Source: Catajapyx aquilonaris (taxonomy: Eukaryota). From it: a stretch of 34,059 nt of DNA. The DNA lies in assembly GCA_000934665.2 (NCBI GenBank), contig KZ538015.1, positions 124,001 through 158,059 of the forward strand, written 5' to 3'. Positions 8,047-25,982 of this stretch are shown piece after piece. Within the stretch, counting starts at the first letter, position 1. The number at the start of each line of letters is the position of its first letter. A program made the position numbers and the translations under genes. The notes beneath the pieces were generated by a model that ran no database searches, had not been told where the DNA came from, and was given only the letters and a program-made list of their open reading frames with translations.

Positions 8047-10695
8047 ATGGCCAACGCTTCTACCACCTCCTCCAGGACAGACGTCATCTCGGGGCTAGTC
8101 AAGGTATGGGTACAGCTGAAGCCCCACTCGCTTCAGAAAAAAAACAAAAAAAGAGGAATAAGTTGGCACCCCTGGGGCATGTGACAGGGTAGCCAATCTG
8201 GCCTGCTGTAGTTGAAAAGTCCTTACTTGAGAAAACTGGCACCCCTGGGGCAAGTGACAGGGTAGCCAATCTGGCCTGCTGTAGTTGAAAGTCCTTACTT
8301 GAGAAAAACAGTTGGCACCCCTGGTCGTGTGATACTGTTGCATGTAGTCGTGGTGCCTGCAGTTGTAAAAACGGTTGGCACCCTGCTTGTCATGTGACAC
8401 TAGACAGTTGCCTGTAGTAGTGCCTGTAGTTGACGGTTGGCACCCCTTGTGAATGTCATGTGAATGGCAGGGTTGCCAACTGTCAATGTCGACACATTCC
8501 AATTATTGTGAAAGATTGTTTACAGTGCATGATTCTCATTGCGCAATTTGCTTTGCTGCCAACTCTTTTTCTCAGCGTACAGAGAGAGAGATGGGAAAAA
8601 AAGTGTATGGGCCAAGAAAAAATGAGGTGAATAGAGTTGATTCACCTTGGCTTAATTATGCGATGAGTCATGAACATTGGATCGCTATGAATTATTAGAT
8701 CTGATGATATGCTGGGAATGCAGACTGCGACCTCGATCTGATATAAATGTAGCTGGCGACGATAACATGAACCGCATTGTACACACCGAAATGAACATAT
8801 TCGATTGTACTTTACTTTTCTCTAGAGCAGACACAAAAGGTGTTGCTGGGAACGTATAGTTGTTAGCATTATGCGGCCCATTGTGTCTGGCTGTTATTTT
8901 TAAGCTAGGTTATCAAGTGTTTGCATTGGGTGGATTTGGGAACAATGCGGCTCTTGAGATTCTTTCTCTCCCTTGCGAGGATCTGATCAATCTGTACAAT
9001 TATCGGATTGGGTATCTTGAGTGCACTCGGATGGTCTTGCGGGATTAAATTGCGCAACAGGCTCAAGTACGGGCAAGTGAAGTCCCAGCATGATCGGCCG
9101 AAATAAGGTCATATGCTGTACGTGATGTTTGGAAGAAAAGCTGCTTTTATGTGCCATTGTGCTTTTAAAAAATGAAATGGTTTCCATGCTCTGGATAACA
9201 AACAAACGTTGCTCTGTTTCTTAGGCTGTTGTTGGTGGGCAGTACCGCCTTGTGCAAAAGATAGGGAGCGGTTCCTTTGGTGACATCTACATGGGCATAA
9301 ACATCACCAACGGAGAGGTAATCCCGCAGTTGTACTTGTGGCATCGGGACTAATTCACCATTTGCATTTTTCAGAGAGTGGCTGTGAAGCTGGAGTCAAT
9401 CAAAGGAGCCCACCCGCAGCTTCTTTATGAGAGCAAGCTGTACAAATACCTTTCCAATGGGATTGGAATCCCGCAGACCAAGTATGACCTGCCACTTGTT
9501 GCACATAATATGAAGTCACTCATGATATAACTTGTTACAGATGGTACGGCCAGGAAGGTAACTACAACGTACTTGTCATGGATTTGTTGGGACCGTCCCT
9601 TGAGGATTTGTTCAACTTCTGCTCTCGACGGTTCAGCCTGAAGACGGTGCTCCTGCTTGCTGACCAAATGTTGACCCGCCTTGAGTTCCTTCACGCCAAA
9701 AGCTTTATACACAGGGACATTAAGCCGGACAACTTTGTCATGGGATCGGGCAGTCAAAGCAACAGAGTAAGCTGCCGTTAACGCCTTTCGGTGGGAGCAA
9801 GCTTATCAGTTGTCGCTTACTTCTCAGGTGTTCATGATTGACTTTGGATTGTCCAAAAAATACCGTGACAACATTAGTCGTGTGCACATTCCATACCGGG
9901 AGGATAGGAACTTGACTGGCACTGCCCGATATGCGTCCATCAATGCGCACAAGGGAATCGAGCAAGGGTAAGTGACTCCAAATGTAAGTTCGTAAAAAAA
10001 GTAACTTATGCTTTTTTGAAACAACGAGTGAACCGGTGTCATCCTTCAAGTGCACTTAATTAAAAGTACTGTTTAATCTGTCAGGCGGCGAGACGACATG
10101 GAGTCCTTGGGGTATGTCCTAATGTACTTCAATAGAGGGAGCCTTCCCTGGCAGGGACTCAAGGTGAGGATTATTTCTGGGTGGGGGAACTGCTGTAATT
10201 ACTGAAGAGGCATGTGCATAATCACTGTACTTTTGTCATGCTCTCAAAAGGCGGCTACTAAGAAGCAAAAGTATGAGAAGATTTGCGAAAAGAAGATGTC
10301 GACGCCAGTGGAGGTTCTCTGCAAGGTAACAGGTTTTTGAAAATATTGCGGTTGCGATGATCCGAGCAGTAATAGTTACAACTTTTAGTCCTGATCTGTC
10401 AATTAACAATTTTTTGATGGAAATGTTACACATGATAGTACGAGTGCCGATATAATTGTTACATGTCTTCCAGGGCTACCCGAGTGAGTTTTCCCTGTAC
10501 CTGAACTACTGCCGGAGCCTCCGTTTCGAAGAGGCCCCTGACTACATGTACCTCCGGCAGCTTCTTCGCAACATGTTTCGCAACTTCAACTACCAGTACG
10601 ACTACCTTTTTGACTGGTGCCTGAAGCAAAAGGCTCTCGAGGCAGTCAGAGGAACCCTCCAGGCCATTGCCACTCCCGGTGAGTCTCTCTCGTAG
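8047..10695 (+). CDS. CSNK1A1: Casein kinase 1 alpha-like Ser/Thr kinase (332 aa if the last donor is read through; C-terminus uncertain)
   Basis: Exons 8047-8103, 9225-9317, 9375-9481, 9541-9766, 9828-9967, 10085-10163, 10251-10325 and 10474-10695, all GT-AG and phase-consistent. Motifs include [98 protein letters not shown] and [15 protein letters not shown], which are alpha-type. Exon 1 ([19 protein letters not shown]) is less certain. A strong donor G|GTGAGT at 10679 suggests a further exon. Confidence 0.93.
8161..8482. repeat. Tandem repeat in CK1 intron 1
   Basis: Two near-identical ~73-bp units (TGGCACCCCTGGGGCA.GTGACAGGGTAGCCAATCTGGCCTGCTGTAGTTGAAAGTCCTTACTTGAGAAAA). Three shorter degenerate GTTGGCACCC units follow, then an inverted GGGTTGCCAAC at ~8470. 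Confidence 0.85.
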
Positions 10696-13600
10696 GCAGT
10701 TAAACTCTTCACACTTTTTTATCCTTTTTTTTTTTTTGAAACGAAAACTTAGTAGGTGGTGGTAGGGAAGAAAAAGTTTCCTAAGTTTGTCATTGTTTTT
10801 CTTCCCCCCAATTTTTGTAGCGAACTGTAGTGTGGACCCTGGTGGATGCAAGAGGATCCAAGGCAATTCCTTTTGCATTGCTCACTGGTCTTTTGCACCT
10901 GTTCCCAGCATGCGAAGTTCTCAAAGAAAGTGACCCCCCCTTCTTTTTTTGTACAATTTTTTTTTACACACAAAAAAACACTGCGGGAAAATTTATCTCA
11001 GGACATCTCTTGTGGTTGTGATAATGACGTGTGCGAATAGCACTCTTTTTTTTTCATTTAGGGTTGCTATTTTGATTTTTCCAACTGGCGCCCCGATTTA
11101 CAATGGACTATTTTAAGTGCTGGATTTCAAGATATTTTTAAACAAAATGTACATTGTTTTTGCCAAACTTGTGCGGTGGTCACAGCTTTTTTGAAGGAAA
11201 AAAAAAAGAAACGAGTGGCCAATGTTCCTCCCCCTCCATTATTTGTAATACTTGACAAAAAAATATGAAAAGTACTCAATGGAATGCTTTTGACTTCTTT
11301 TTTTTTTATGGGAGTAAAATTTTCAACACTGTAAATATTGGCCTTTTTTGTGGTTGATTGATTGCTCGAATTATTCGGTGCCCTCTGAAAGTGTAATTGA
11401 AATAATCACTCGATCAAATTCAAATTGGCAATACTGTTAGTCACGAACAAATTTTGCAATACGGTTTAATAGCTATTGGATTTGTACGCGATGAAGATAT
11501 GGAGGTTTATTATTATTATTATCATTTTTCTGAGTAATGTGGTCTACATATATTAAGGTGCTACAGTCAATTTCAGACATATTTTAGGATTAAGCTTTCA
11601 TGTCTCTAATGGTCGGTTTAAAAAAATTAATTTCAGTGTAATTTTTGCAACCATGCCATGCTTTCTTACCAAAATGAATCGAAATAGGTTACGTGAAGAT
11701 TTTGACTCCAGGATTACAATACACGTACTCATGTTGGTAAAGAATAACGATATTATGCTTGTGGTTTCTTCCAATGTGGCCTTTTCGCTCAAATTTGGTC
11801 AGTCTGGAGCATGATCCAAGTGTACTTGCAAAAAAAAACTTTCTATCAAGTAGTTGGTCTTCCATTTTCCATTTTTTAGTTGCAATTATTTCGTATCAGA
11901 TTGGAAAGTGTGAGGCTATTTTGAACAAAATATGAATGCGTAGAAAGAGTACATACACCACTTTGCATGTACTCCCTGCAATTTTTTTTGTTTAAATTTA
12001 AAAAAAAAGAAAGAATGTTATTTAATTTGCGTTTGTTTGTCAAGTAGAAACTGACCAGTCATTTTTTTGTTGCAGGTGGCCATTAAAATGCAAGAATTTG
12101 CATAGGCAACGGCCAAGTGACAGGTTTTAAGTGATTTAAAGAGTGGCCTTAACACATGATGTGTTCCAGGTGGTTAGGATTTTTTTAAAAAACGAATGGG
12201 GGGGAAAAGAAAGTGTGTAAATGGACTCAACGTTGAAGAACAGTCGTACTTCAGAACGCATCTCCTAAGTGGCATTACAGGAATTTTCTTACGGGTTAGC
12301 ATTTGAGTTCAGTTGCCAATTAACGAAGCCTCTCGGAAGCATGTGCGAATGGATTCTGCCACACTCCAATAATTTTTTTGGTGTAATGAATAACTGTTTT
12401 TTTGTCAGGCATGGATGTATGCCCAAGCCGTTGGCGTAAATGTTTCAGAATGATTGGTTGTCCCACCAGTTATTGATATAAATGAATAATAGTGTCACAC
12501 ATGGGCATGAATTGGAAAACTGATGAGCCGCCTGAATTAAAAGACGTTGCTTTTGGATGTGCTTCACATTTTTTTTTTTTTAAAGAAAAAAAGACTGTAA
12601 TTCAAAATGCTCAATGTGGTGTATAATAGTGCTGGGAATGAATTTTTTCTGCGGTTTACACATACTGTGAAATAGTCAACATGTATTACTTCTTTTTTTA
12701 TGTTGCATGCCATATGTGCACCTTTTTTTTTTTTTTTTTTGCAGGATGTGTGGTTTACCTGTTCAGTATATGTTTAAAGACAAAATGTTGTTGAATCAGG
12801 ACCAAATGCCCCGCGTCTCGGTTTGGAAACTCTCGCAGTGTCTACGTCAAGTTTAAGCTTAAGCAAATGTGATAAAAAATAATAATAATTTCGTTGTCAA
12901 GTGTTTTGCTTGGACTGACTTAGATCGCTGGATAAAAATTCTTCAAAATTCCTATTGAAAATATTTGTTTGCAAATGTGGAAGAAAAACAAATCTTTTCA
13001 CGCCTGATGTGTGCGAGCAGAGCAGTTGTGTTTCTATATACATGAAGAAAAGAAAAAAAAAAGGCTGCTAGTTTTTTGAATGCGATGTTTTTTGGCCACT
13101 TGGAGGATCAACTCATTGCAGTGTTACTGGTGTCTAGTTCATTTCTTAACTTGGTCATCCTACTGATGCATTCCGTTGAGTGCTTGACAGTGGTGTTGAA
13201 AAAAAAAATGACGATTTTCAACTGTACAGGAGTTTGTGATAATAAATATAATGCTCCGTGAACAACGTGTTATGATCTGCTCAAACGACACATTACAGGT
13301 GTGGGAGTGGGTTGGGACGTGTTTCCAACATTTGAGACCCTGTCGGATTCATAATTCTGATCCCCAACGTTTGTTTAGTTTTAAGGTTACGCATCTTCAA
13401 TTATTCAACCGAAATCATACGCTTTGGAATGTCACATTTGAAGTGACAGTTTTATTGCTTCCGCCTCACGAGATTTTAGAAGATTGCTGACGATGTAAAA
13501 TTGCAGGAAATTTTTCTCTTCCATCCGAGTGGGACCTGTCAAAAGATGAAACGTATTGCATTTTGTTACTGCAAACAAGGACGTCACATGTACGCTGCGT

Positions 13601-13727
13601 TATACGGCTGTACATTTTGAAATATTCTTAACGATAATGAGCTGTGTCATATCTTACATATTTCACGATGAGACATGCACTCATGTTTGTCGTGTGGTTT
13701 CCCTCGATCTTGTTCCGTCAAGTGACG

Positions 13728-14012
13728 TCACTTACAGCACTGTTGCTTTACGTAAACATACAGCTCTATTGAGAGACTGACGAGTTGCGTGCTCACCCAG
13801 GCTAAGAAGAGGCTTTTGAGGACTTCGAATTCAGTTTTTTCGTAGACAGCGACAGCCAGGCTGAAGCAGTACCACAGGAAGAGGGATACTGTTGCTGCCA
13901 CCAAGATGGTGGCGAAGACCATGAGAATCGCAGTAATTACCCTGCAAGGGAATAGAGACCGCTGCAATTATCATCACTAATGCGAATGATTTAAGATGTA
14001 CCAGTTCGCCAT
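13728..14012 (-). CDS. Small membrane protein H (74 aa, about 2 TM; possibly 106 aa with a third exon 13535-13432)
   Basis: Exons 14012-14002 and 13941-13728, joined by a 60-nt GT-AG intron, give MANWVITAILMVFATILVAATVSLFLWYCFSLAVAVYEKTEFEVLKSLFLAWVSTQLVSLSIELYVYVKQQCCK*. A donor T|GTAAGT at 13735 joins in frame to the acceptor at 13536 (...CPTRMEEKNFLQ...LQM*), with AATAAA at ~13451-13456. No recognised family. Confidence 0.55.
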
Positions 14013-14180
14013 GATAATTTTGAACAATCGGTTGAGCTGTTGACTAATGTTACCATGCACATCGCCTGGCAATGGTTCATGGACAATTTACTGACTACTG
14101 TTGGACTTTGGGCTATGTGGCACATACTTAAATTAATCGACATGCAATTTTCTAAGTAACCGTCTCGTTTCGTGCTGTGC

Positions 14181-14503
14181 TCAACCTTCGGCTACTGTAG
14201 ATTTTTCCGATGCCTCCATGACGGTGAAGGCAACATGTAGGCATACGTAAGCAGTTGTCAGCAATAAAAAGATGAGGTGGTTATGATCCCACCCAGGCGC
14301 CATCCACTCATCGTACAGGCAGATGACCGTAACGGTGAAAGAAATGGCAAAGTAGCAGATGGGAAGGAGCATGTCAAGCGATATTGCTGCAAGAGAAGGG
14401 CAGATATTTTCGTATTAACAAGGTTTAATTTGCGAGGAATATTATTCTTACCTGTATGACCTAAATGACTTGCTGACTCACCAGGCTGGAAACAGTTTGC
14501 CAT
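14181..14503 (-). CDS. Small 2-TM membrane protein G (63-75 aa)
   Basis: The exon starts at acceptor CTCTTGCAG| (14386) and encodes MLLPICYFAISFTVTVICLYDEWMAPGWDHNHLIFLLLTTAYVCLHVAFTVMEASEKSTVAEG* from ATG 14372. An upstream ATG at 14503 is in frame via donors at 14481 (GTGAGT) or 14451 (GTAAGA), giving MANCFQP|AISLD. It is similar to exon 2 of ORF A. Confidence 0.6.
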
Positions 14504-14525
14504 TCCGTTTATCTGCTGCTGTAGG

Positions 14526-14714
14526 TCAGGACATGATGAAGTTGGTGGGAGGCATCCCGATTGCAAAGGAAATCCCCACAATTACTATTACAAGGCTTAA
14601 TATGTCGTGCGCGATAACCTCAAAGGGTGCAGACCAATTTCTCAAATCACCGACTAGCAGCCAGCCTGATAAAATCATGCACATGGCGAATATGATCAAA
14701 AAGACAATGTCCAT
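14526..14714 (-). CDS. Small 2-TM membrane protein F (62 aa)
   Basis: MDIVFLIIFAMCMILSGWLLVGDLRNWSAPFEVIAHDILSLVIVIVGISFAIGMPPTNFIMS*. The ATG lies 14 nt after a strong acceptor (68-nt intron 14796-14729, GTATGC...TTTTGCAG). The upstream exon has an in-frame stop. Confidence 0.6.
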   Translation of the reverse strand: MDIVFLIIFAMCMILSGWLLVGDLRNWSAPFEVIAHDILSLVIVIVGISFAIGMPPTNFIMS

Positions 14715-15156
14715 GCAAACTGGTGCGACTGCAAAAGAAAAGAAAAAAAGTATCATTATCCTAATTAACACAAATTGGAAGGAGGTGCAAGCATACCTGC
14801 TATTACTCGGAATATACGTTAGCTTGGTGACAGTGCATCATAACTTGTACGTAGTCACCTCCGTCTTTGGCTGCGATTCTACAGCAATTTCACATGACTT
14901 GCTGTACAGTACTGCAAAATTTTATCAACTTGAAGCATTTTTTTTTTCCTTCCAATTTCAGTATTTGTATCCAGGTTTCTATGGTTTTGGTACCAAATTG
15001 TCAAACTTGCGATGAGCCCATTCAGATAATTTTGGCATGAATCACGTTTCCATTTCCTACCCGAGGTTTTCACATCCGATGGTAAATTCAATTTTTATTG
15101 CTCTGACATAACTTTGGAAGTCACTAAGAAAGAAGTAGTTTGTACGACACTTTTTA

Positions 15157-15643
15157 TTATGTTGCGACTGATCTTCTGCGCACCCTCCGTGGACGACGTA
15201 ATTTGAAGAAGGATGTATTTTCTGAGATGAAAACTATGCCAAAGAATGCGTATGCGATGCTACAGCAGATCAGGAAGTAGAGTTCCGCAGCGAAAGGGCA
15301 AGCTCTAGGCTTGTACCACTCGCCATAGATGCTAATGCAGAGGAAGGATAGTCCAGCCAAGTAGCCAAACAGATATGTGAGATCCGGAAAAATTGGCTGC
15401 AAGGAAAGGTGTGTGAGTCGGGGTTTATTGTGAAGTGGCAGAGAATGAACTCACATTTGTAACCAACTTGCTGATTTGGAACGAAACAAGGGCAGCACTC
15501 CACATCACTAAGAATATACTAGCTGCTAGAGTCTGAACGGGTTCAGGTGCTCGAGGTTCGCAGCCGAACAGAATGAGAGCCAGGATGTAGCATAGTCCAA
15601 TAAGCATGAGCGTAGATATGGTTAATGGGATCAGATGGTACAT
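15157..15643 (-). CDS. Small 4-TM membrane protein A (142 aa, 2 exons, basic C-terminal tail)
   Basis: Exons 15643-15455 and 15396-15157 are joined by a 58-nt phase-0 GTGAGT...TTGCAG intron. There are four hydrophobic segments and the tail KLRRPRRVRRRSVAT. AATAAA overlaps the stop, and another lies at ~15094-15099. Confidence 0.68.
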
Positions 15644-15722
15644 TGTGATGGGAAAGGATGCTGAAAAATAGATGTATGAACCGTCTCAGTATCGCTGACG
15701 TCTGGATTTAAAAAACACTCAC

Positions 15723-15965
15723 CTATGAGTCCAGGAATGCTGCATCCATCCTGCGGAATTCCGACTCATAGTGGTCGTACTGGCTTATGCGACGTTGGCC
15801 AATTGACATAGTTTCGGTCATTTCTTTCATCGCAAAGATAACACCCAAGACTCCTGTCAGAATGCTGATGTATATCACTGCATCGGGATTGTCCCACATG
15901 CTAAAGAGCAAGGTACCAGACAGGCCCAAAAGAGCGACGGATCCACCAAGCAAGTAACGCTCCAT
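15723..15965 (-). CDS. Small 2-TM membrane protein B (80 aa)
   Basis: MERYLLGGSVALLGLSGTLLFSMWDNPDAVIYISILTGVLGVIFAMKEMTETMSIGQRRISQYDHYESEFRRMDAAFLDS*. The ATG has a good context (GCAATGG) 19 nt after acceptor TTTGCAG|. The TAG is followed immediately by donor GTGAGT. Confidence 0.65.
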   Translation of the reverse strand: MERYLLGGSVALLGLSGTLLFSMWDNPDAVIYISILTGVLGVIFAMKEMTETMSIGQRRISQYDHYESEFRRMDAAFLDS

Positions 15966-16163
15966 TGCGGATAAGCACCGAGTGCTGCAAAGCAAATGAG
16001 AAAAATTACAGTTTAGCAGAAGGACTTTAAAAAGAAAAGTACTTGCCTGATTTCACTTTCTGAATTTTATGACTTGTTGAAATATTTGGTTGTTACTATA
16101 GGTACGTAATCTGACAATGAAGTTGTGTGACTTGCTCTCGTTACAAGTCACAGGTGCTCAAGT

Positions 16164-16352
16164 CTACAGTGCATAATATTCAATAATGCATCCACCTAGG
16201 AAAAGAGCAAGTCCAATGGAGATGCAAGTGAAGCCGCAGCAGAAGCTATTAGCTGACGTGTTGGGGCTCGGATGATGCCATGATGTGGAAACGACCATGG
16301 ACCAGCAGGTTAGAAGGGCTGTGGCTGTGTACAGAGCTGCTACAGGTCCCAT
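16164..16352 (-). CDS. Small 2-TM membrane protein C (62 aa)
   Basis: MGPVAALYTATALLTCWSMVVSTSWHHPSPNTSANSFCCGFTCISIGLALFLGGCIIEYYAL*. The ATG is 8 or 16 nt after tandem AG acceptors (16361, 16369). An in-frame TGA lies two codons upstream of the ATG. Confidence 0.55.
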   Translation of the reverse strand: MGPVAALYTATALLTCWSMVVSTSWHHPSPNTSANSFCCGFTCISIGLALFLGGCIIEYYAL

Positions 16353-16441
16353 GAATCAGGCTAATAAACTAAGGAGAAACGACATGAAAGTGTAACGCAA
16401 GCAGCACATGATAAGTTTCTCACCTGCTGCGTCTGAAGTAG

Positions 16442-16612
16442 TCATGTGGCAGTGACCCTACTTGCCCCCATCCCAGTTGCCCACATCAGAAAAAGCATGA
16501 ACGTAATGATGTTTGTATTGGTTGCAACGTCGCACCAATTTTGTGCCAAGAACATGAAGCTTCTAATCACCCCAATTACATACAAAAATGTAATGATGGG
16601 TGCGGGTGCCAT
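16442..16612 (-). CDS. Small 2-TM membrane protein D (56 aa; below the ORF-track cutoff)
   Basis: MAPAPIITFLYVIGVIRSFMFLAQNWCDVATNTNIITFMLFLMWATGMGASRVTAT*. The ATG is 11 nt after acceptor TTTCAG| (62-nt intron 16685-16624). The stop is 18 nt before donor CAG|GTGAGA at 16423. Confidence 0.55.
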   Translation of the reverse strand: MAPAPIITFLYVIGVIRSFMFLAQNWCDVATNTNIITFMLFLMWATGMGASRVTAT

Positions 16613-16828
16613 GAAATATCACACTGAAATGAAAGTAATATTAATATTGGACCGTAACTTATCAGAATGAGTGCAGGTTGTTCACCTGTGAATTTATAAG
16701 ACTTGTTTACACGGATCACATCACCGGGCAATGATTATTGTTGAAAGTATTGGCTCGTTATGTGAACTTGTTTAATAGCTTGGGTGAAACTACACTAATT
16801 ACATAACACAATATATGTAGCGTTCTGA

Positions 16829-17131
16829 CTACTCTTTGGAGCTTTCCTTTGCTTTCTTCGACTTCTCCCCGATGACCTGGTCCACCATTTCGATGGCCTT
16901 CTTGGCTGGCATCTTTGACAGCACAGCCTTCAGGTCGTCCATGACCACAGTGTCCTCACCAGTCGGAGTGGTGTATGCAGCCATGATCAGATCTTCCAGG
17001 CAGTTGAACTCCTCAGGTTTGAAGCGGCCTGAATTCTCCAGGTTGTGCATCAGCTCCACGTAGACCTCACGGGTAGTCCGGCGATGGCACTTCTTCCTTG
17101 GCTTCTTCCAGAAGGAAAGGAGGGATCCCAT
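16829..17131 (-). CDS. Uncharacterised 100-aa protein E with N-myristoylation motif and polybasic patch
   Basis: MGSLLSFWKKPRKK fits MGxxxS plus a basic cluster. The ORF is clean and GC3-rich like the conserved genes, against AT-rich flanks. An acceptor CCAACAG| sits 1 nt before the ATG. Confidence 0.72.
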   Translation of the reverse strand: MGSLLSFWKKPRKKCHRRTTREVYVELMHNLENSGRFKPEEFNCLEDLIMAAYTTPTGEDTVVMDDLKAVLSKMPAKKAIEMVDQVIGEKSKKAKESSKE

Positions 17132-17555
17132 ACTGTTGGATCAAACTTATTAATTACTGTATTAAATTGGAGGTAAATATACTTGATAAAAGCTTGAAAC
17201 ATTTCCACAAACCTTTTTTTTTCTCTTCAAGTGTGATTGGCCTCAAAGTCTGACGATCAAACACGGAATGAACTGCTTGTCTTTCGTCCACTGCAAATTC
17301 GACGTGTCTTTAACACAATTAAAAGATGATAAGCCTGCTGCGAATTCCAAACAAGCTCGTTACTAACCGGAGTTTAAAAAAATGATGGAACAATCGTCAA
17401 ACTGGGATTCAAATATTGGCGCCATCCTTGAAATAATTACTGGCACAGGATTTTTTGAGTTTTTAATACCTTAATTAATTAATTTTTAATTAGTAGCACT
17501 TAATGTGACAGTGCTATGATATTGTGATTATTATTAAATTCGAATTTACTGTGCA

Positions 17556-17626
17556 TGACGTCATGTTCCACAAATAGGACGTCATGATTTGTAGTGACGT
17601 CATGATCCATCATATATGTGACGTCA
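17556..17626. promoter_or_regulatory. Cluster of CRE (CREB/ATF) palindromes
   Basis: TGACGTCA at 17556, 17595 and 17619, plus GGACGTCA at 17577. The cluster lies in the divergent intergenic region between ORF E and V-ATPase B. Confidence 0.45.
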
Positions 17627-18199: not shown

Positions 18200-18350
18200 G
18201 TTTACACCTGCTATGGATGCACTCAACCTTCGTTTCAATTGGTTCGTAATGGAAATTGCTGCATCGTGATTGGTCGGTGGTTCCATATCCGGGTTGTGCA
18301 GCTCGCGATCATAATCCGGGACGCATGCGCATTGTGATCCTGTCACGTGA
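18200..18350 (+). promoter_or_regulatory. V-ATPase B proximal promoter with CLEAR/M-box-like element
   Basis: GTCACGTGA at 18342-18350, NRF1-like CGCATGCGCA at 18322-18331, ATTGG at 18238 and 18269, and GTTTACAC at 18200. Confidence 0.6.
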
Positions 18351-18434: not shown

Positions 18435-20126
<1,692 letters not shown>

Positions 20127-20565: not shown

Positions 20566-20980
20566 TAATAAGCAGCTAGTATGTACCTACTGGAAATAAC
20601 ACAATAAGCTGCTATCTATTGGCAGAAAATAACAAGCAGCTATCTACTGACAAAATAATAAGCTGCTATCTATTGGCAGAAAATAACAAGCAGCTATCTA
20701 TTGACAGAAAATAACAAGCAGCTATCTACTGACAGAAAATAACAAGCAGCTATCTACTGACAAAATAATAAGCTGCTATCTATTGGCAGAAAATAACAAG
20801 CAGCTATCTATTGACAGAAAATAACAAGCAGCTATCTACTGACAGAAAATAACAAGCAGCTATCTACTGACAGAAAATAACAAGCAGCTATCTACTGACA
20901 GATAATAACAAGCAGCTACAATGTACCGACTGAATATAACAATAAGCGGCTACTGAGTGCCGACTGAATAATAAGCAGCT
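20566..20980. repeat. Minisatellite, 27-28 bp unit
   Basis: More than a dozen tandem copies of AAGCAGCTATCTA(C/T)TG(A/G)CAGAAAATAAC and the variant AAGCTGCTATCTATTGGCAG. The array degenerates at both ends. Confidence 0.95.
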
Positions 20981-21273: not shown

Positions 21274-22210
21274 ATGGTTCAAGCGTGGTACATGGACGAC
21301 TCTGATGCGGACCAGCGTCTGGAGCACAAGCTGGACCCGCCCGAGTACGTGGAAGTGGAGGAACTGAAGACTCTTTGCGGGGTCCTCTATTGGAAGGTAC
21401 ACACTTGTTTGGAATATTTTTTGTTGACGTGACGTCATTACATAAAAACATGCATGTATACATACATGTTCCTTACTCCCAGACCGAGAGGACAAGATGT
21501 TTAATTTTTCATGGAGGTTAGTGTGAGGTTGTTTCCGACAGATGTGCCACGATGCATATGTTCGATTGATCCCTTTCGTGTTGTTGCAGTTGGACGCAAA
21601 GACCTACAAGGAGGATGGCAAGTTGGAAGAGATAAAGAAGGAGCGGGGTTACACGTACGAGGATGTCTGCGAAGTGTCCAAGGAGAAGATGCCTGACTAT
21701 GAAGACAGGGTAAGCTTCCGGATTGCAGTTGGGACAAATCTTAACATAAAAATAGATTGTCGGTTGATTTCTTTTTGAAATACCGGTAAATGCAGTTATT
21801 GGCTTATGATTGCGATGCAAATGTGATTATTACCGCTTGCAGATCAAGATGTTTTTCGAGGAGCATCTCCACACGGATGAAGAGATCCGCTTCATCTTGG
21901 ATGGTTCCGGCTATTTTGATGTTCGTGACCGCAAGGACCGTTGGATTCGAATTTTGGTCGAACGTGGAGATCTGCTGATTGTCCCTGCTGGAATTTACCA
22001 TCGCTTCACCATGGATGTTAATGTGGGAACATAAAATTATTGTAAGCTGTACACCTGGCAGGAAACTGAAGATTGGATTCTACTTTCCAGAATTATGTGA
22101 AGGCAATGCGGCTGTTTGTTGGTGAACCTGTTTGGACGCCCCACAACCGTCCAGCAGACAACATACCAGCCAGGAAGGAGTATCTCGCCCAAATGGAGCG
22201 AGGATTCTAA
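21274..22210 (+). CDS. ADI1: Acireductone dioxygenase (ARD/ADI1), copy 1, 180 aa
   Basis: Exons 21274-21396, 21590-21709, 21843-22022 and 22091-22210. Motifs [50 protein letters not shown] and [24 protein letters not shown] is at 22615-22620. Confidence 0.97.
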
Positions 22211-22278
22211 GCACAATTGACTGAACCAGGCAATTCTGATGTATCCAAACCACAGTCTTATTTTGCTTTGGTCTGCTG

Positions 22279-23084: not shown

Positions 23085-24125
23085 ATGGTTCAGGCTTGGT
23101 TCATGGACGACTCTGATGCTGACCAGCGTCTGGAGCACAAGCTGGACCCTCCCGAGTACCTCCAAGTGGAGGAACTGAAGGCTCTTTGCGGGGTCCTCTA
23201 TTGGAAGGTATACACTTGTTGGAACATTTGGTGACGTAACTACATTACATAAGAATAAGAAGCATGTGATGAAATGAGTTAATTTCGTTCCTTACTGCCA
23301 CTACATGTTTAATTCTGCAGGGAGATTAAAGTGTGAAGTTGTTTCTGGCAGATGTGCTTATGTTTGATTGATCCCTATTTCGTGTTGTTACAGTTGGACG
23401 CAAAGACATACGTGGAGGATGGAAAGTTGGAACAGATAAAGAAGGAGCGTGGTTACACTTACGCAGATATCTGTGAAATGTCCAAGGAGAAGATGGGGCC
23501 TGACTATGAAAAGACAGTAAGCTGCATGATTGCCAGTTGGGACAAACTGCTTAACATAAAAATAGATTGTCGGTTTATTTTTTTTAAAGTAATGCAGTTA
23601 CTGGCCTGTGATTGCAATCAATCAATTTATTTCACTGTTTATCCCAGACCCATTGCAATATATGTAGTACATTTGCAGATTGCTGATTATAGCATAGAGA
23701 AGGCCATGTATGATTCGAGTTACAGTAGGCCCATGTTATCATGCCATTTGGCCACATACATTAGAAGATAATAAATCGATTTCAATTGTTCCAGTGTAGG
23801 CTCTTGGAGGATTAGCCAGATATTGTCTCTTTGTAATGGTGGTATGTGATTTTGTAGTTTAAACCTGCCTCCCTTCTGGGCATTCACTAAGAATATGGAC
23901 CCAGTCATTAAGATTCTTATAGTTACAAAGATTACAATTTTCATCAGGATTAATTTGGAGGCTTCTTCTGTTACCTAATGGTATCCAATTTATTAGAATT
24001 AAATCTGAGGCATGCCAACATTCTACTAACAATAAGATTTAATATATGGTACAGGAACTCTATGGAGAGTGGAAGTATCTATAATTATCATAGTATATCA
24101 ATTTCATATGGTTAGAAGTTGATTT

Positions 24126-24194
<69 letters not shown>

Positions 24195-25335
24195 CCTGGG
24201 GCTTTTTAGGGGATCATCTTTTTAATTAACAGACTTTAATCATTGCCTTTGCTGTGATGGATTTTAATAGTGGGAGGAAATGGGAGAACCCCGAGAAAAC
24301 CCACGTGAACATGGAGAGAACCCATCGAAACTTTATCGACATAACTATCCTCCGTCCGACCCAGGGATCGATCTCGGGACCTTAGAGGTGGAAGGCTGTG
24401 GCGCTAACCACTCTGCCACCGTGCCGCCCAACAAGTCGACTTATTGGGACAAGCAATATTAATTTTTTCCTTCGATATCCAGCATCGTTTGTGTTAGTGT
24501 TGCATACTTTCGCAACCAGTTTTTGTCATCTCTCGCCGTGAAATTTCTAATTGATTGCCCATATTCGTTGAGCAGTTTATCTAGTTGCTTGATCCAGTTA
24601 TATTTTATTGGGGTTGTATTTTAATACCTAAATAAGTATATGTTGAAAGTATTTCTAATTGATTATCTTCTAATATAGAAGTGTCAGTGTCGGAAAGTCG
24701 ATCACCTTTCCTAAATATTATCACCTTCGTTTTAGAAATGTTAATCAATCCATTATTCTTAAGGTAGTTACCTGTGTGGTCAAGTAGCTTCTGTAGGTAT
24801 AAATTTATTGTCCGCTAACAAGACAATATCAAATTATACAAATAGTAAAGCTTTAATATCGTGACCGTTGTCAAGCCGTCACCTTGCAATTGGATTCCAT
24901 CCGTGTTATGACTTGTCAGCCAATGCATGACCTGTGATAGCAATGTTGACATGCTTGTTATGCTGCTTGCAGATCAAGATGTTTTACGAGGAGCATCTCC
25001 ACACAGACGAAGAGATCCGCTTTACTTTGGATGGTTCTGGCTATTTTGATGTTCGTGACCGCAAGGACCGTTGGATTCGAATTCTGGTTGAACGTGGAGA
25101 TCTTCTGATTGTCCCTGCTGGAATTTACCATCGCTTCACCATGGATTCTAATGTGGGAACATGATTGTAAGCTGTACACCTGGCAGGGAACTAACAGTTG
25201 GATCCTACTTTCCAGAATTACGTGAAGACAATGCGGCTGTTTGTTGGTGAACCTGTTTGGACACCTCACAACCGTCCAGCAGACAACGTGCCAGCCAGGC
25301 AGGAGTATCTGGCACAACTGGAGCGAGGATTCTAA
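23085..25335 (+). CDS. ADI1: Acireductone dioxygenase (ARD/ADI1), copy 2, 181 aa
   Basis: Exons 23085-23207, 23394-23516, 24973-25152 and 25216-25335. The frame is intact and the metal ligands (HLH...E...H) are retained. Intron 2 is expanded to 1456 nt versus 133 nt in copy 1. AATAAA is at 25437-25442. Confidence 0.95.
23619..24930 (-). mobile_element. 5'-truncated, decayed non-LTR retrotransposon (LINE) fragment
   Basis: The 14-bp TSD is CCTGTGAT(T/A)GCAAT at 23605-23618 and 24931-24944. The minus strand gives [16 protein letters not shown] (degenerate LLFADD motif) and [31 protein letters not shown]...YTYLGI (RT C-terminal part). It also gives [22 protein letters not shown] (CCHC knuckle). 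The 3' end has AATAAA plus (ATTG)n. Confidence 0.88.
24129..24429 (-). mobile_element. tRNA-derived SINE with V-domain-like core and (ATT)22 tail, nested in the LINE
   Basis: The minus strand begins GGGCGGCACGGTGGCAGAGTGGTTAGCGC (A box) and then GAGATCGATCCC (degenerate B box). The core GTTCTCTCCATGTTCACGTGGGTTTTCTCGGGGTTCTCCCATTTCCTCCCAC resembles the V-SINE core. The tail is (AAT)22 at 24129-24194. A possible eroded TSD lies at 24114-24128 / 24431-24445. Confidence 0.85.
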
Positions 25336-25610
25336 GCACCTGAGACTGAACCGCCCAATTCCGATGGACATCCAAACTGACATCTTCCACACATTACGTT
25401 TTCAAAGTTTATACAAATTCTGGGATTTTAGTGCCAAATAAAGGGATCTATTTTGCTTACGAGACATCCTGCATTTACACCATTGACAACTACGTGTACA
25501 CTAACATTTTCAACAACCACCAAAGTCAATAATAACTTGATTATTGTTTGCAGAGGGAAAATAGATTTTCCCCCCCCTAAATACAATAATTGGATGCAAC
25601 ATAATATTAG

Positions 25611-25982
25611 AAGCTGCTATTGATGTGTGATAATCGGTACATAATTAAGCTGCTACTGACGTCAATAAGCAGCTTTATGATTAAGCTGCTACTGGCGTCA
25701 AAGCCACTACATTAATAAGCAGCTTCATGATTAAGCTGCTACCGAAGCCATAGCCGCTACATGGATAAGCTGCTACTGGTGACAAAGCAGCTACATGAAT
25801 AAGCTGTTACATGATTAAGCTGCTACCGAAACCATAGCTGCTACATGGATAAGCTGCTACCGAAGCCATAGTCGCTTCATGATTAAGCTGTTACTGACGC
25901 CATAGCCCCTACATGAATGACGTCATCATTGTAATAACCGCTACATGGTTAAGCTGCTACTGACGTGCAATAACTGCTACAC
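25611..25982. repeat. Degenerate tandem repeat built on AAGCTGCTAC (~34-bp unit)
   Basis: CATG(A/G)(T/A)TAAGCTGCTACCGAAGCCATAGCCGCTA and variants are repeated. The core is shared with the 20566-20980 minisatellite. Confidence 0.85.

Follow-up and report, generated by a model that had tools for sequence, protein, structure and literature searches.

In Drosophila, several small open reading frames (ORFs) can share one messenger RNA (mRNA). As described in a review, wurmchen (wrm1/wrm2) is bicistronic, and its transmembrane (TM) proteins of 162 and 57 amino acids (aa) are made from one mRNA and belong to one complex (PMC11475943). The same review presents sloth1/sloth2, sarcolamban and pri/tarsal-less/mille-pattes as transcripts with several small ORFs, those of pri and sarcolamban being related and redundant and the sloth products being partners in one membrane complex (PMC11475943). 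The polycistronic sets of FlyBase release 6.04, as given in one survey, comprise 159 dicistronic, 7 tricistronic and 2 tetracistronic cases, about 18% of them with similar genes (PMC4528330), and a beetle study counts 35 candidate polycistronic small-ORF genes with 83 ORFs (PMC13670568). The subject here is a cluster of small ORFs in Catajapyx aquilonaris, located in a 34,059-nucleotide (nt) stretch of contig KZ538015.1 (the window; G000:C81:124001-158059, C81 being the contig that bears the cluster) of an intron-containing genome of 286 Mb. Positions below are those of the window. The cluster runs on the minus strand from 17131 to 13728 and consists of one soluble frame, E, and eight hydrophobic frames, D, C, B, A1, A2, F, G and H, in the order E, D, C, B, A, F, G, H, where the predicted 4-TM protein A is built from A1 and A2. 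It is probably a real gene cluster, and its sequence is best read as that of a fast-evolving orphan family whose spliced mRNAs are polycistronic, comparable to wurmchen or sloth except that they would hold five to eight cistrons.

The likeness to wurmchen lies in size (162 and 57 aa, against 142 aa for A and 56-80 aa for D-H). The difference lies in number, two cistrons against 5-8, and no sequence link was found, with no direct comparison made to the wurmchen sequences (PMC11475943). Sloth, sarcolamban and pri, in the same review, hold 2-4 ORFs and have conserved relatives, whereas the cluster would hold 5-8 cistrons, one per exon, that encode 2-TM or 4-TM orphans and lack LDPTGQY. The FlyBase loci are also spliced polycistronic mRNAs enriched for small proteins, and their stop-to-start range of -34 to 319 nt spans six of the seven gaps of the cluster (17-198 nt); the seventh, the A-F gap of 374 nt, is longer than any of these, as two separate units would lead one to expect (PMC4528330). 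More cistrons would stand in a row than is usual in animals; the annotated fly mRNAs of the 2015 FlyBase set reached four (PMC4528330). No description of such a locus was among the top-ranked results of searches in open-access text, and in one of these searches none of the best 15 of 22,851 papers mentions WxxP.

What appears to be the most unusual feature of the locus, and one missing from an earlier sequence-only reading of this DNA, is that the exons each have a start and a stop of their own and would be cis-spliced into a polycistronic mRNA. That reading had bounded the set at 14181..16612, limits that hold from D to G and omit H (13922-13728) and E (17131-16829). Along the minus strand, the parts are:

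16829 to 17131, minus strand: ORF E, 100 aa, soluble, five predicted helices; the first cistron, single copy.
16624 to 16685, minus strand: predicted intron E>D, 62 nt, GT-AG.
16442 to 16612, minus strand: ORF D, 56 aa, 2-TM, W26 without P; its ATG lies 11 nt past the acceptor at 16623.
16369 to 16423, minus strand: predicted intron D>C, 55 nt, with its donor 18 nt past the D stop; its acceptor is weak by matrix, with an alternative at 16360.
16164 to 16352, minus strand: ORF C, 62 aa, 2-TM, WHHP at residue 25.
15985 to 16046, minus strand: predicted intron C>B, 62 nt, GC-AG.
15723 to 15965, minus strand: ORF B, 80 aa, 2-TM, with a 34-aa charged tail and WDNP at 24.
15661 to 15722, minus strand: predicted intron B>A, 62 nt, its donor immediately behind the B stop codon.
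15455 to 15643, minus strand: ORF A exon 1 (A1), 63 codons, 2-TM, no WxxP.
15397 to 15454, minus strand: predicted phase-0 intron within A, 58 nt.
15157 to 15396, minus strand: ORF A exon 2 (A2), 79 codons, 2-TM, WYKP and a basic tail.
15094 to 15158, minus strand: two AATAAA (15158 and 15099), the probable 3' end of an E-D-C-B-A unit.
14729 to 14796, minus strand: predicted intron preceding F, 68 nt.
14526 to 14714, minus strand: ORF F, 62 aa from the post-acceptor ATG, 2-TM, WSAP at 27; an upstream ATG at 14756 falls within the predicted intron.
14387 to 14451, minus strand: predicted intron F>G, 65 nt.
14181 to 14372, minus strand: ORF G, 63 aa, 2-TM, WMAP at 23.
13942 to 14001, minus strand: possible intron G>H, 60 nt, with the strongest acceptor of the locus and a weak donor picked by eye.
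13728 to 13922, minus strand: ORF H, 64 aa, 2-TM, no WxxP.
13451 to 13456, minus strand: AATAAA, the probable 3' end of an F-G-H unit.

Every exon of this predicted chain except A1 ends on a stop codon, and the start codon follows the acceptor at a nearly constant distance (D 11, C 16, B 19, A 17, F 14, G 14 and H 19 nt). With splice matrices built from 22 introns of five neighbouring conserved genes, a donor of at least 6.4 bits was found 55-68 nt upstream of seven of the eight predicted acceptors (A2 included; one donor is GC), against 6 of 213 other AGs; this threshold was set after the fact, and a rank test gives p=1.4e-5. An automated start score, the sum of the best acceptor 5-30 nt before an ATG and the best donor 50-70 nt before that acceptor, ranks six of the seven hairpin starts (D, B, A, F, G and H) within the best 1% when they are compared with 655 other minus-strand ATGs (p=4.7e-6), and the starts of C and E rank at about 10-12%. 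The predicted sizes fit the short class of the neighbours, seven of whose 22 introns measure 54-68 nt. Splicing at the predicted junctions is, on these scores, very probable. The one search for RNA runs across 13400-17500 listed none, which speaks neither for nor against expression. The stop-to-start gaps that would result are E-D 154, D-C 34, C-B 136, B-A 17, A-F 374, F-G 88 and G-H 198 nt, with no ATG in D-C or B-A, nine in A-F and six in G-H. Since the B stop abuts a donor and the D stop lies 18 nt from one, D-C and B-A should share transcripts unless promoters sit inside ORFs, and shared transcripts for at least these two pairs are probable. Poly(A) signals occur after E (ATTAAA at 16776), in the A intron (AATAAA), after A (15158 and 15099) and after H (13456); no canonical signal was seen after D, C, B, F or G. 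The pentamer CAAGT stands 8-60 nt before six of the eight cluster donors, twice within coding sequence, against one of the 22 donors of the conserved neighbours. It was found after the fact, and in null sets a 5-mer of any kind was shared equally often in 1-81 of 4000 draws, the figure varying with window and null; CAAGT may be left over from the duplicated unit or may act as a cis-element. The longer CAAGTCA occurs four times on the minus strand against 0.3 expected. Judged from the sequence, this polycistronic one-exon-one-protein layout is better supported than the sequence motif discussed below.

The encoded products are alike in topology. Two hydrophobic peaks (Kyte-Doolittle window 19, at least 1.4) are present in all eight hairpin ORFs (D, C, B, A1, A2, F, G and H) and in 3 of the 93 other ATG ORFs of 50-110 aa in the window. 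Translation of each cistron is indirectly suggested by frame-specific codon bias: the synonymous-codon score summed over the eight hairpins is -4.4 in frame and -89 and -42 in the other sense frames, and single hairpin ORFs score -5.8 to +5.7 against -4.5 to -31 for 11 non-coding chunks. Codon bias is strong in E (log-likelihood ratio +45.7). The two exons of A join in frame as had been proposed, with the donor after 15455 and the acceptor at 15396, into a predicted 4-TM protein of 142 aa with one stop and a basic C-terminal tail of 8 K/R; A2 has no in-frame ATG of its own. The intron-retained form is indeed 72 aa long, and its TAA, which ends at 15425, overlaps the AATAAA at 15429-15424. The description of A as two such modules holds for its two 2-TM exons and fails for the motif, which A1 lacks, so that the 4-TM protein bears it once.

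The motifs quoted in the sequence-only reading are all present in the minus-strand translations (B SMWDNP, C TSWHHP, F RNWSAP, G DEWMAP, A exon 2 GEWYKP and D QNWCDV). WxxP starts within residues 23-27 in five of the eight hairpins (C 25, B 24, A2 27, F 27 and G 23); D carries W26 without P, and A1 and H have no WxxP. A search over every residue pair, spacings 1-6 and all windows returned WxxP as the top motif, with a score reached by none of 1500 shuffled sets in each of four nulls (full, 15-, 10- and 8-residue window shuffles). Only one of the 93 other window ORFs has WxxP at residues 21-29. The analytic probability after look-elsewhere correction is 0.034 when W is set at 6% and P at 10%, which is near significance. 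A positional WxxP motif is thus shared among the hairpins above chance. An AlphaFold2 model of A2 from an eight-row alignment has a hairpin of helices 4-28 and 34-65 with the motif at the turn (predicted local distance difference test score 72.8, predicted template modelling score 0.42).

Whether the hairpins form one paralogue family was approached by alignment. Five of the 28 hairpin pairs reach p<=0.05 against about 1.4 expected, the pairs not being independent. The longer alignment of G with A2 is visible as described and is not significant alone (p=0.088 by full shuffle, 0.079 by window shuffle). In leave-one-out profiles, the number of shuffles out of 500 that scored as high was 12 for A2, 24 for G, 41 for D, 45 for F, 70 for B, 226 for C, 425 for A1 and 456 for H; only A2 and G fall below 0.05, uncorrected. 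The proposal of a repeated exon-sized hairpin module is backed by the positional WxxP, the uniform acceptor-to-ATG spacing, the introns of 55-68 nt and CAAGT before six of eight donors, although pairwise scores fail correction; in the comparison with shuffles that had been called for, the motif excess beats the shuffled sets and the pairwise and W-anchored flank scores do not. Common origin is argued from the motif together with shared size, topology and exon layout. On these grounds paralogy of the hairpins is likely and common ancestry of the WxxP members has reasonably good odds; convergence on a favoured turn may also be the source of WxxP.

No relative was found in the collections searched. 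All nine ORFs gave matches below cut-off only in Pfam, PHROGs and NCBIfam, the best being SPC25 for G with an expectation value (E) of 0.0098, so the match to a known family that the sequence-only reading had named as a refutation was not found. Word-index protein searches returned 676 candidates for the eight-hairpin alignment, none at E<=1, 709 candidates without a relative for the A1/A2 alignment among longer proteins, and no relative for ORF E. A phmmer search of B against 1.84 billion representatives gave four matches, each summed over 5-9 weak stretches, and the two that were inspected are unrelated tandem-repeat proteins. The ESM Atlas held nothing usable for A2 and scores of at most 0.78 for ORF E, JGI metagenome scans with ORF E and A2 returned no match, no convincing hit came from the PDB sequence searches, Rfam had no match at E<=1, and none of 10 cluster sequences was present in an exact look-up in a collection of 15 billion proteins. 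Fold searches returned generic hairpins and helical bundles only, a result that excludes no family. Within the same genome, B, E, G, A2, F and C (six of nine ORFs) and the DNA of 13700-16650 are single copy, and three weak extra matches (E=0.76-3.2) are not convincing.

Specific families were also considered. V-ATPase subunit e resembles the hairpins in being a small membrane protein of two helices and in having a proline behind the first of them, and the cluster stands head-to-head with a V-ATPase B gene. However, the subunit e model (PF05493, ATP_synt_H) matched none of the nine ORFs, its 11 genome matches all lie off C81, and the subunit e gene itself is at C45:153188-154220, has several exons and reads FLAP instead of WxxP. 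CatSper theta / TMEM249 (PF15158) had three genome matches, none on C81; a gene of this family above the Pfam cut-off lies at C2748:21269-21794. For CatSper eta / TMEM262, PDB sequence searches with alignment A1, G, B, F or A2 listed no CatSper chain up to E=10, with no direct comparison made. The larger wurmchen product is MARVEL-like; the model of MARVEL / Snakeskin-type 4-TM proteins (PF01284) had 13 genome matches, all on other contigs and none on the cluster, and did not match A1 or A2 scanned singly. Chemoreceptor or tetraspan fragments were rejected: all predicted exons but A1 close with a stop, and no Pfam family reached its cut-off.

Several observations count against a polycistronic family of paralogues. 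No hairpin pair survives Bonferroni correction (smallest p=0.017 of 28), the W-anchored similarity outside W and P reaches only p~0.07 (flanks p=0.057-0.76), and leave-one-out profiles fail to recover C, A1 and H. The analytic probability of the motif loses significance after look-elsewhere correction once W is set at 10% and P at 15% per position, and unrelated hairpins commonly have W where a helix ends and P in the turn. No orthologue was found in the libraries searched, where power is low for short hydrophobic proteins and 'orphan' means undetected. The hairpins show much less codon bias than the neighbours, which score +15 to +25 per 190 nt, and both the G>H donor and the acceptor before C are weak. 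A single scanned mRNA of eight cistrons is further burdened by out-of-frame ATGs inside D, C, B, A and G (five of the seven hairpin ORFs up to G) and by the nine ATGs between A and F, and because of both, plain scanning through eight cistrons is unlikely. Re-initiation over ATG-free gaps combined with internal promoters would be the more economical model, the promoters being invoked because the A-F and G-H gaps hold nine and six ATGs.

On balance, the explanation that fits the sequence best, and is somewhat more likely than not, is a single-copy cluster of real, fast-evolving orphan genes that arose from one tandem-duplicated exon-sized unit and are cis-spliced into polycistronic mRNAs. The unit would consist of an acceptor, 11-19 nt, an ATG, a two-helix hairpin, a stop, a short untranslated region (UTR), a donor and an intron of about 60 nt, and it would have been duplicated in tandem long ago. 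The simplest transcripts would be E-D-C-B-A, with its 3' end at the AATAAA pair 15158/15099, and F-G-H, with its 3' end at 13456. In A, an in-frame splice would skip the stop between two units and yield the 4-TM protein. Translation would probably proceed by re-initiation or leaky scanning over short gaps (D-C 34 nt, B-A 17 nt), and internal promoters that give nested transcripts would help it downstream. Each hairpin is likely inserted with both ends cytosolic and the short W-x-x-P loop lumenal or outside, where W would anchor the end of helix 1 and P would make the turn. By the positive-inside rule, basic C-terminal tails point to cytosolic ends, and this orientation is proposed because of such tails; in some ORFs helix 1 might instead be a signal peptide that is cleaved off. 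Most likely the products work jointly in a single membrane of one tissue, E being lipid-anchored on its cytosolic face. Their co-assembly, suggested by the presumed co-transcription and by precedent, is put forward tentatively, and the male germ line as the tissue is a guess held with similar reserve. An extended version is improbable: one mRNA, or two nested ones, would be an operon for an undescribed membrane complex with seven hairpin subunits, paralogous and of the WxxP kind, plus a cytosolic adaptor that is myristoylated and may derive from an EF-hand protein, the 4-TM fusion would be switchable to 2-TM by intron retention and early polyadenylation, and start codons 11-19 nt behind a junction, with CAAGT ahead of that junction, would be part of the mechanism by which ribosomes initiate on 5-8 cistrons.

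If the preferred explanation is true, a gene family has grown by duplication of a self-contained exon within one transcript, and the step from 2-TM to 4-TM by fusion is visible in A. With five to eight cistrons of one exon each that encode related membrane hairpins, the locus would be an extreme example and a small, convenient system in which to study ribosome access to downstream ORFs in animals. Such loci are likely overlooked by annotation.

The alternative that survives best, though it is unlikely, is a set of tightly packed, mostly monocistronic tandem genes with their own internal promoters, short 5' UTR exons and shared poly(A) sites, giving 3'-coterminal nested mRNAs of which the first ORF alone is translated. 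It would suit the separate ATTAAA of E at 16776, the E-D, C-B, A-F, F-G and G-H gaps (154, 136, 374, 88 and 198 nt), which could fit a start site, and the recurrent CAAGT or CAAGTCA before donors, which could be a promoter-proximal element. Drosophila polycistronic loci often have monocistronic isoforms from downstream promoters (PMC4528330). The D>C donor 18 nt past the D stop and the B>A donor at the B stop speak against it, because promoters would there need to sit inside ORFs, as does the lack of a canonical poly(A) signal behind D, C, B, F or G. The Drosophila spermatocyte motifs CNAAATT (3 against 2.1 expected) and TGTCA, taken from PMC7197356, are not enriched, which for CNAAATT also counts against this alternative. 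Were the transcripts monocistronic, the locus would be a more ordinary lineage-specific cluster of orphan membrane microproteins.

A spliced polycistronic cluster that is real but holds unrelated small membrane proteins is rather more doubtful still. WxxP would then be convergence on a favoured turn and the grouping an operon-like gathering, as would befit the lack of significant similarity outside the motif, the absence of WxxP from A1 and H and the W-only D; in the FlyBase survey, the genes are dissimilar in about 82% of the Drosophila polycistronic loci (PMC4528330). Against unrelated origins stand the motif score that none of 1500 shuffles reached in any of the four nulls, the excess of hairpin pairs at p<=0.05 (5 of 28 against about 1.4, not independent), and the agreement in size, topology, one-hairpin-per-exon layout and acceptor-ATG spacing.

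A cassette gene, in which a common leader exon is spliced to any acceptor by exon skipping, or a trans-spliced leader is added, to give one first ORF per mRNA, has very little probability. The very uniform 11-19 nt from acceptor to ATG would fit a leader joined just ahead of each start, and Drosophila genes that share non-coding exons are known, with inaF-A to -D sharing 3' UTRs (PMC4528330). Nearly every acceptor, however, has its own strong donor at minimal-intron distance, which favours joining of neighbouring exons. Skipping across introns of 55-68 nt is unusual and counts against a cassette as well.

It is scarcely credible that the hydrophobic ORFs are accidental, whether in a long non-coding RNA that is spliced or in the remains of a single multi-pass gene: the absence of homologues in every search and the weak codon bias of the hairpins would fit either, but two-helix ORFs are found in 8/8 against 3/93 cases, seven acceptors have an ATG 11-19 nt behind them and a stop ahead of the next donor, codon bias is frame-specific, WxxP is in excess, and the MARVEL, V-ATPase e and TMEM249 models match genes on other contigs and none here.

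ORF E differs from the hairpins. Its N-terminus reads MGxxxS followed by a basic patch, which we take to be the pattern of a myristoylated, membrane-tethered protein. Residues 43-71 weakly resemble a shortened EF-hand: among 2468 frames of 30 of the 96 EF-hand loci, the best match is an EF loop at E=0.11. Membership in the EF-hand / neuronal calcium sensor group was considered for ORF E, which has no Pfam hit and is absent from the 96 genome matches to PF13499, and a single-sequence model of it matched generic helical bundles only. A resemblance to calaxin was dropped, with no support from the PDB sequence search. A minus-strand frame at 10552-10839, antisense to the end of the casein kinase I gene, matches ORF E at E=3.2 and is taken as chance. 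A putative 5' UTR intron of 56 nt precedes ORF E at 17157-17212 on the minus strand (donor 6.5 bits, weak acceptor at 17156), which would imply a non-coding leader exon. About 430-500 nt upstream of ORF E, three TGACGTCA palindromes, presumably CRE-like (cyclic AMP response element), cluster within 17556-17626; another overlaps the H stop (13723-13730), and the whole window holds eight.

The neighbours, assigned by recognition of their translations, are presumably casein kinase I (plus strand, converging on the cluster), V-ATPase subunit B (plus strand, head to head, ATG at 18437), two acireductone dioxygenase (ARD) genes and one slimb/beta-TrCP gene. In the head-to-head interval before V-ATPase B, TGCGCATGCG, which we take to be NRF1-like, lies at 18322-18331 on the minus strand, and this interval is a possible shared promoter region. 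A plus-strand ORF of 160 aa at 14533-15015 was treated, by inference, as the antisense shadow of F. The two ARD genes, presumed to be of ARD/ADI1 type, are near-identical and stand in tandem on the plus strand at 21274-22212 and 23086-25337; both are intact, with about 180 aa and three introns. They are flanked by related tandem arrays at 20606-20918 and 25638-25916, made of AAGCAGCTA / TAAGCTGCTA units with periods of 28 and ~34-50.

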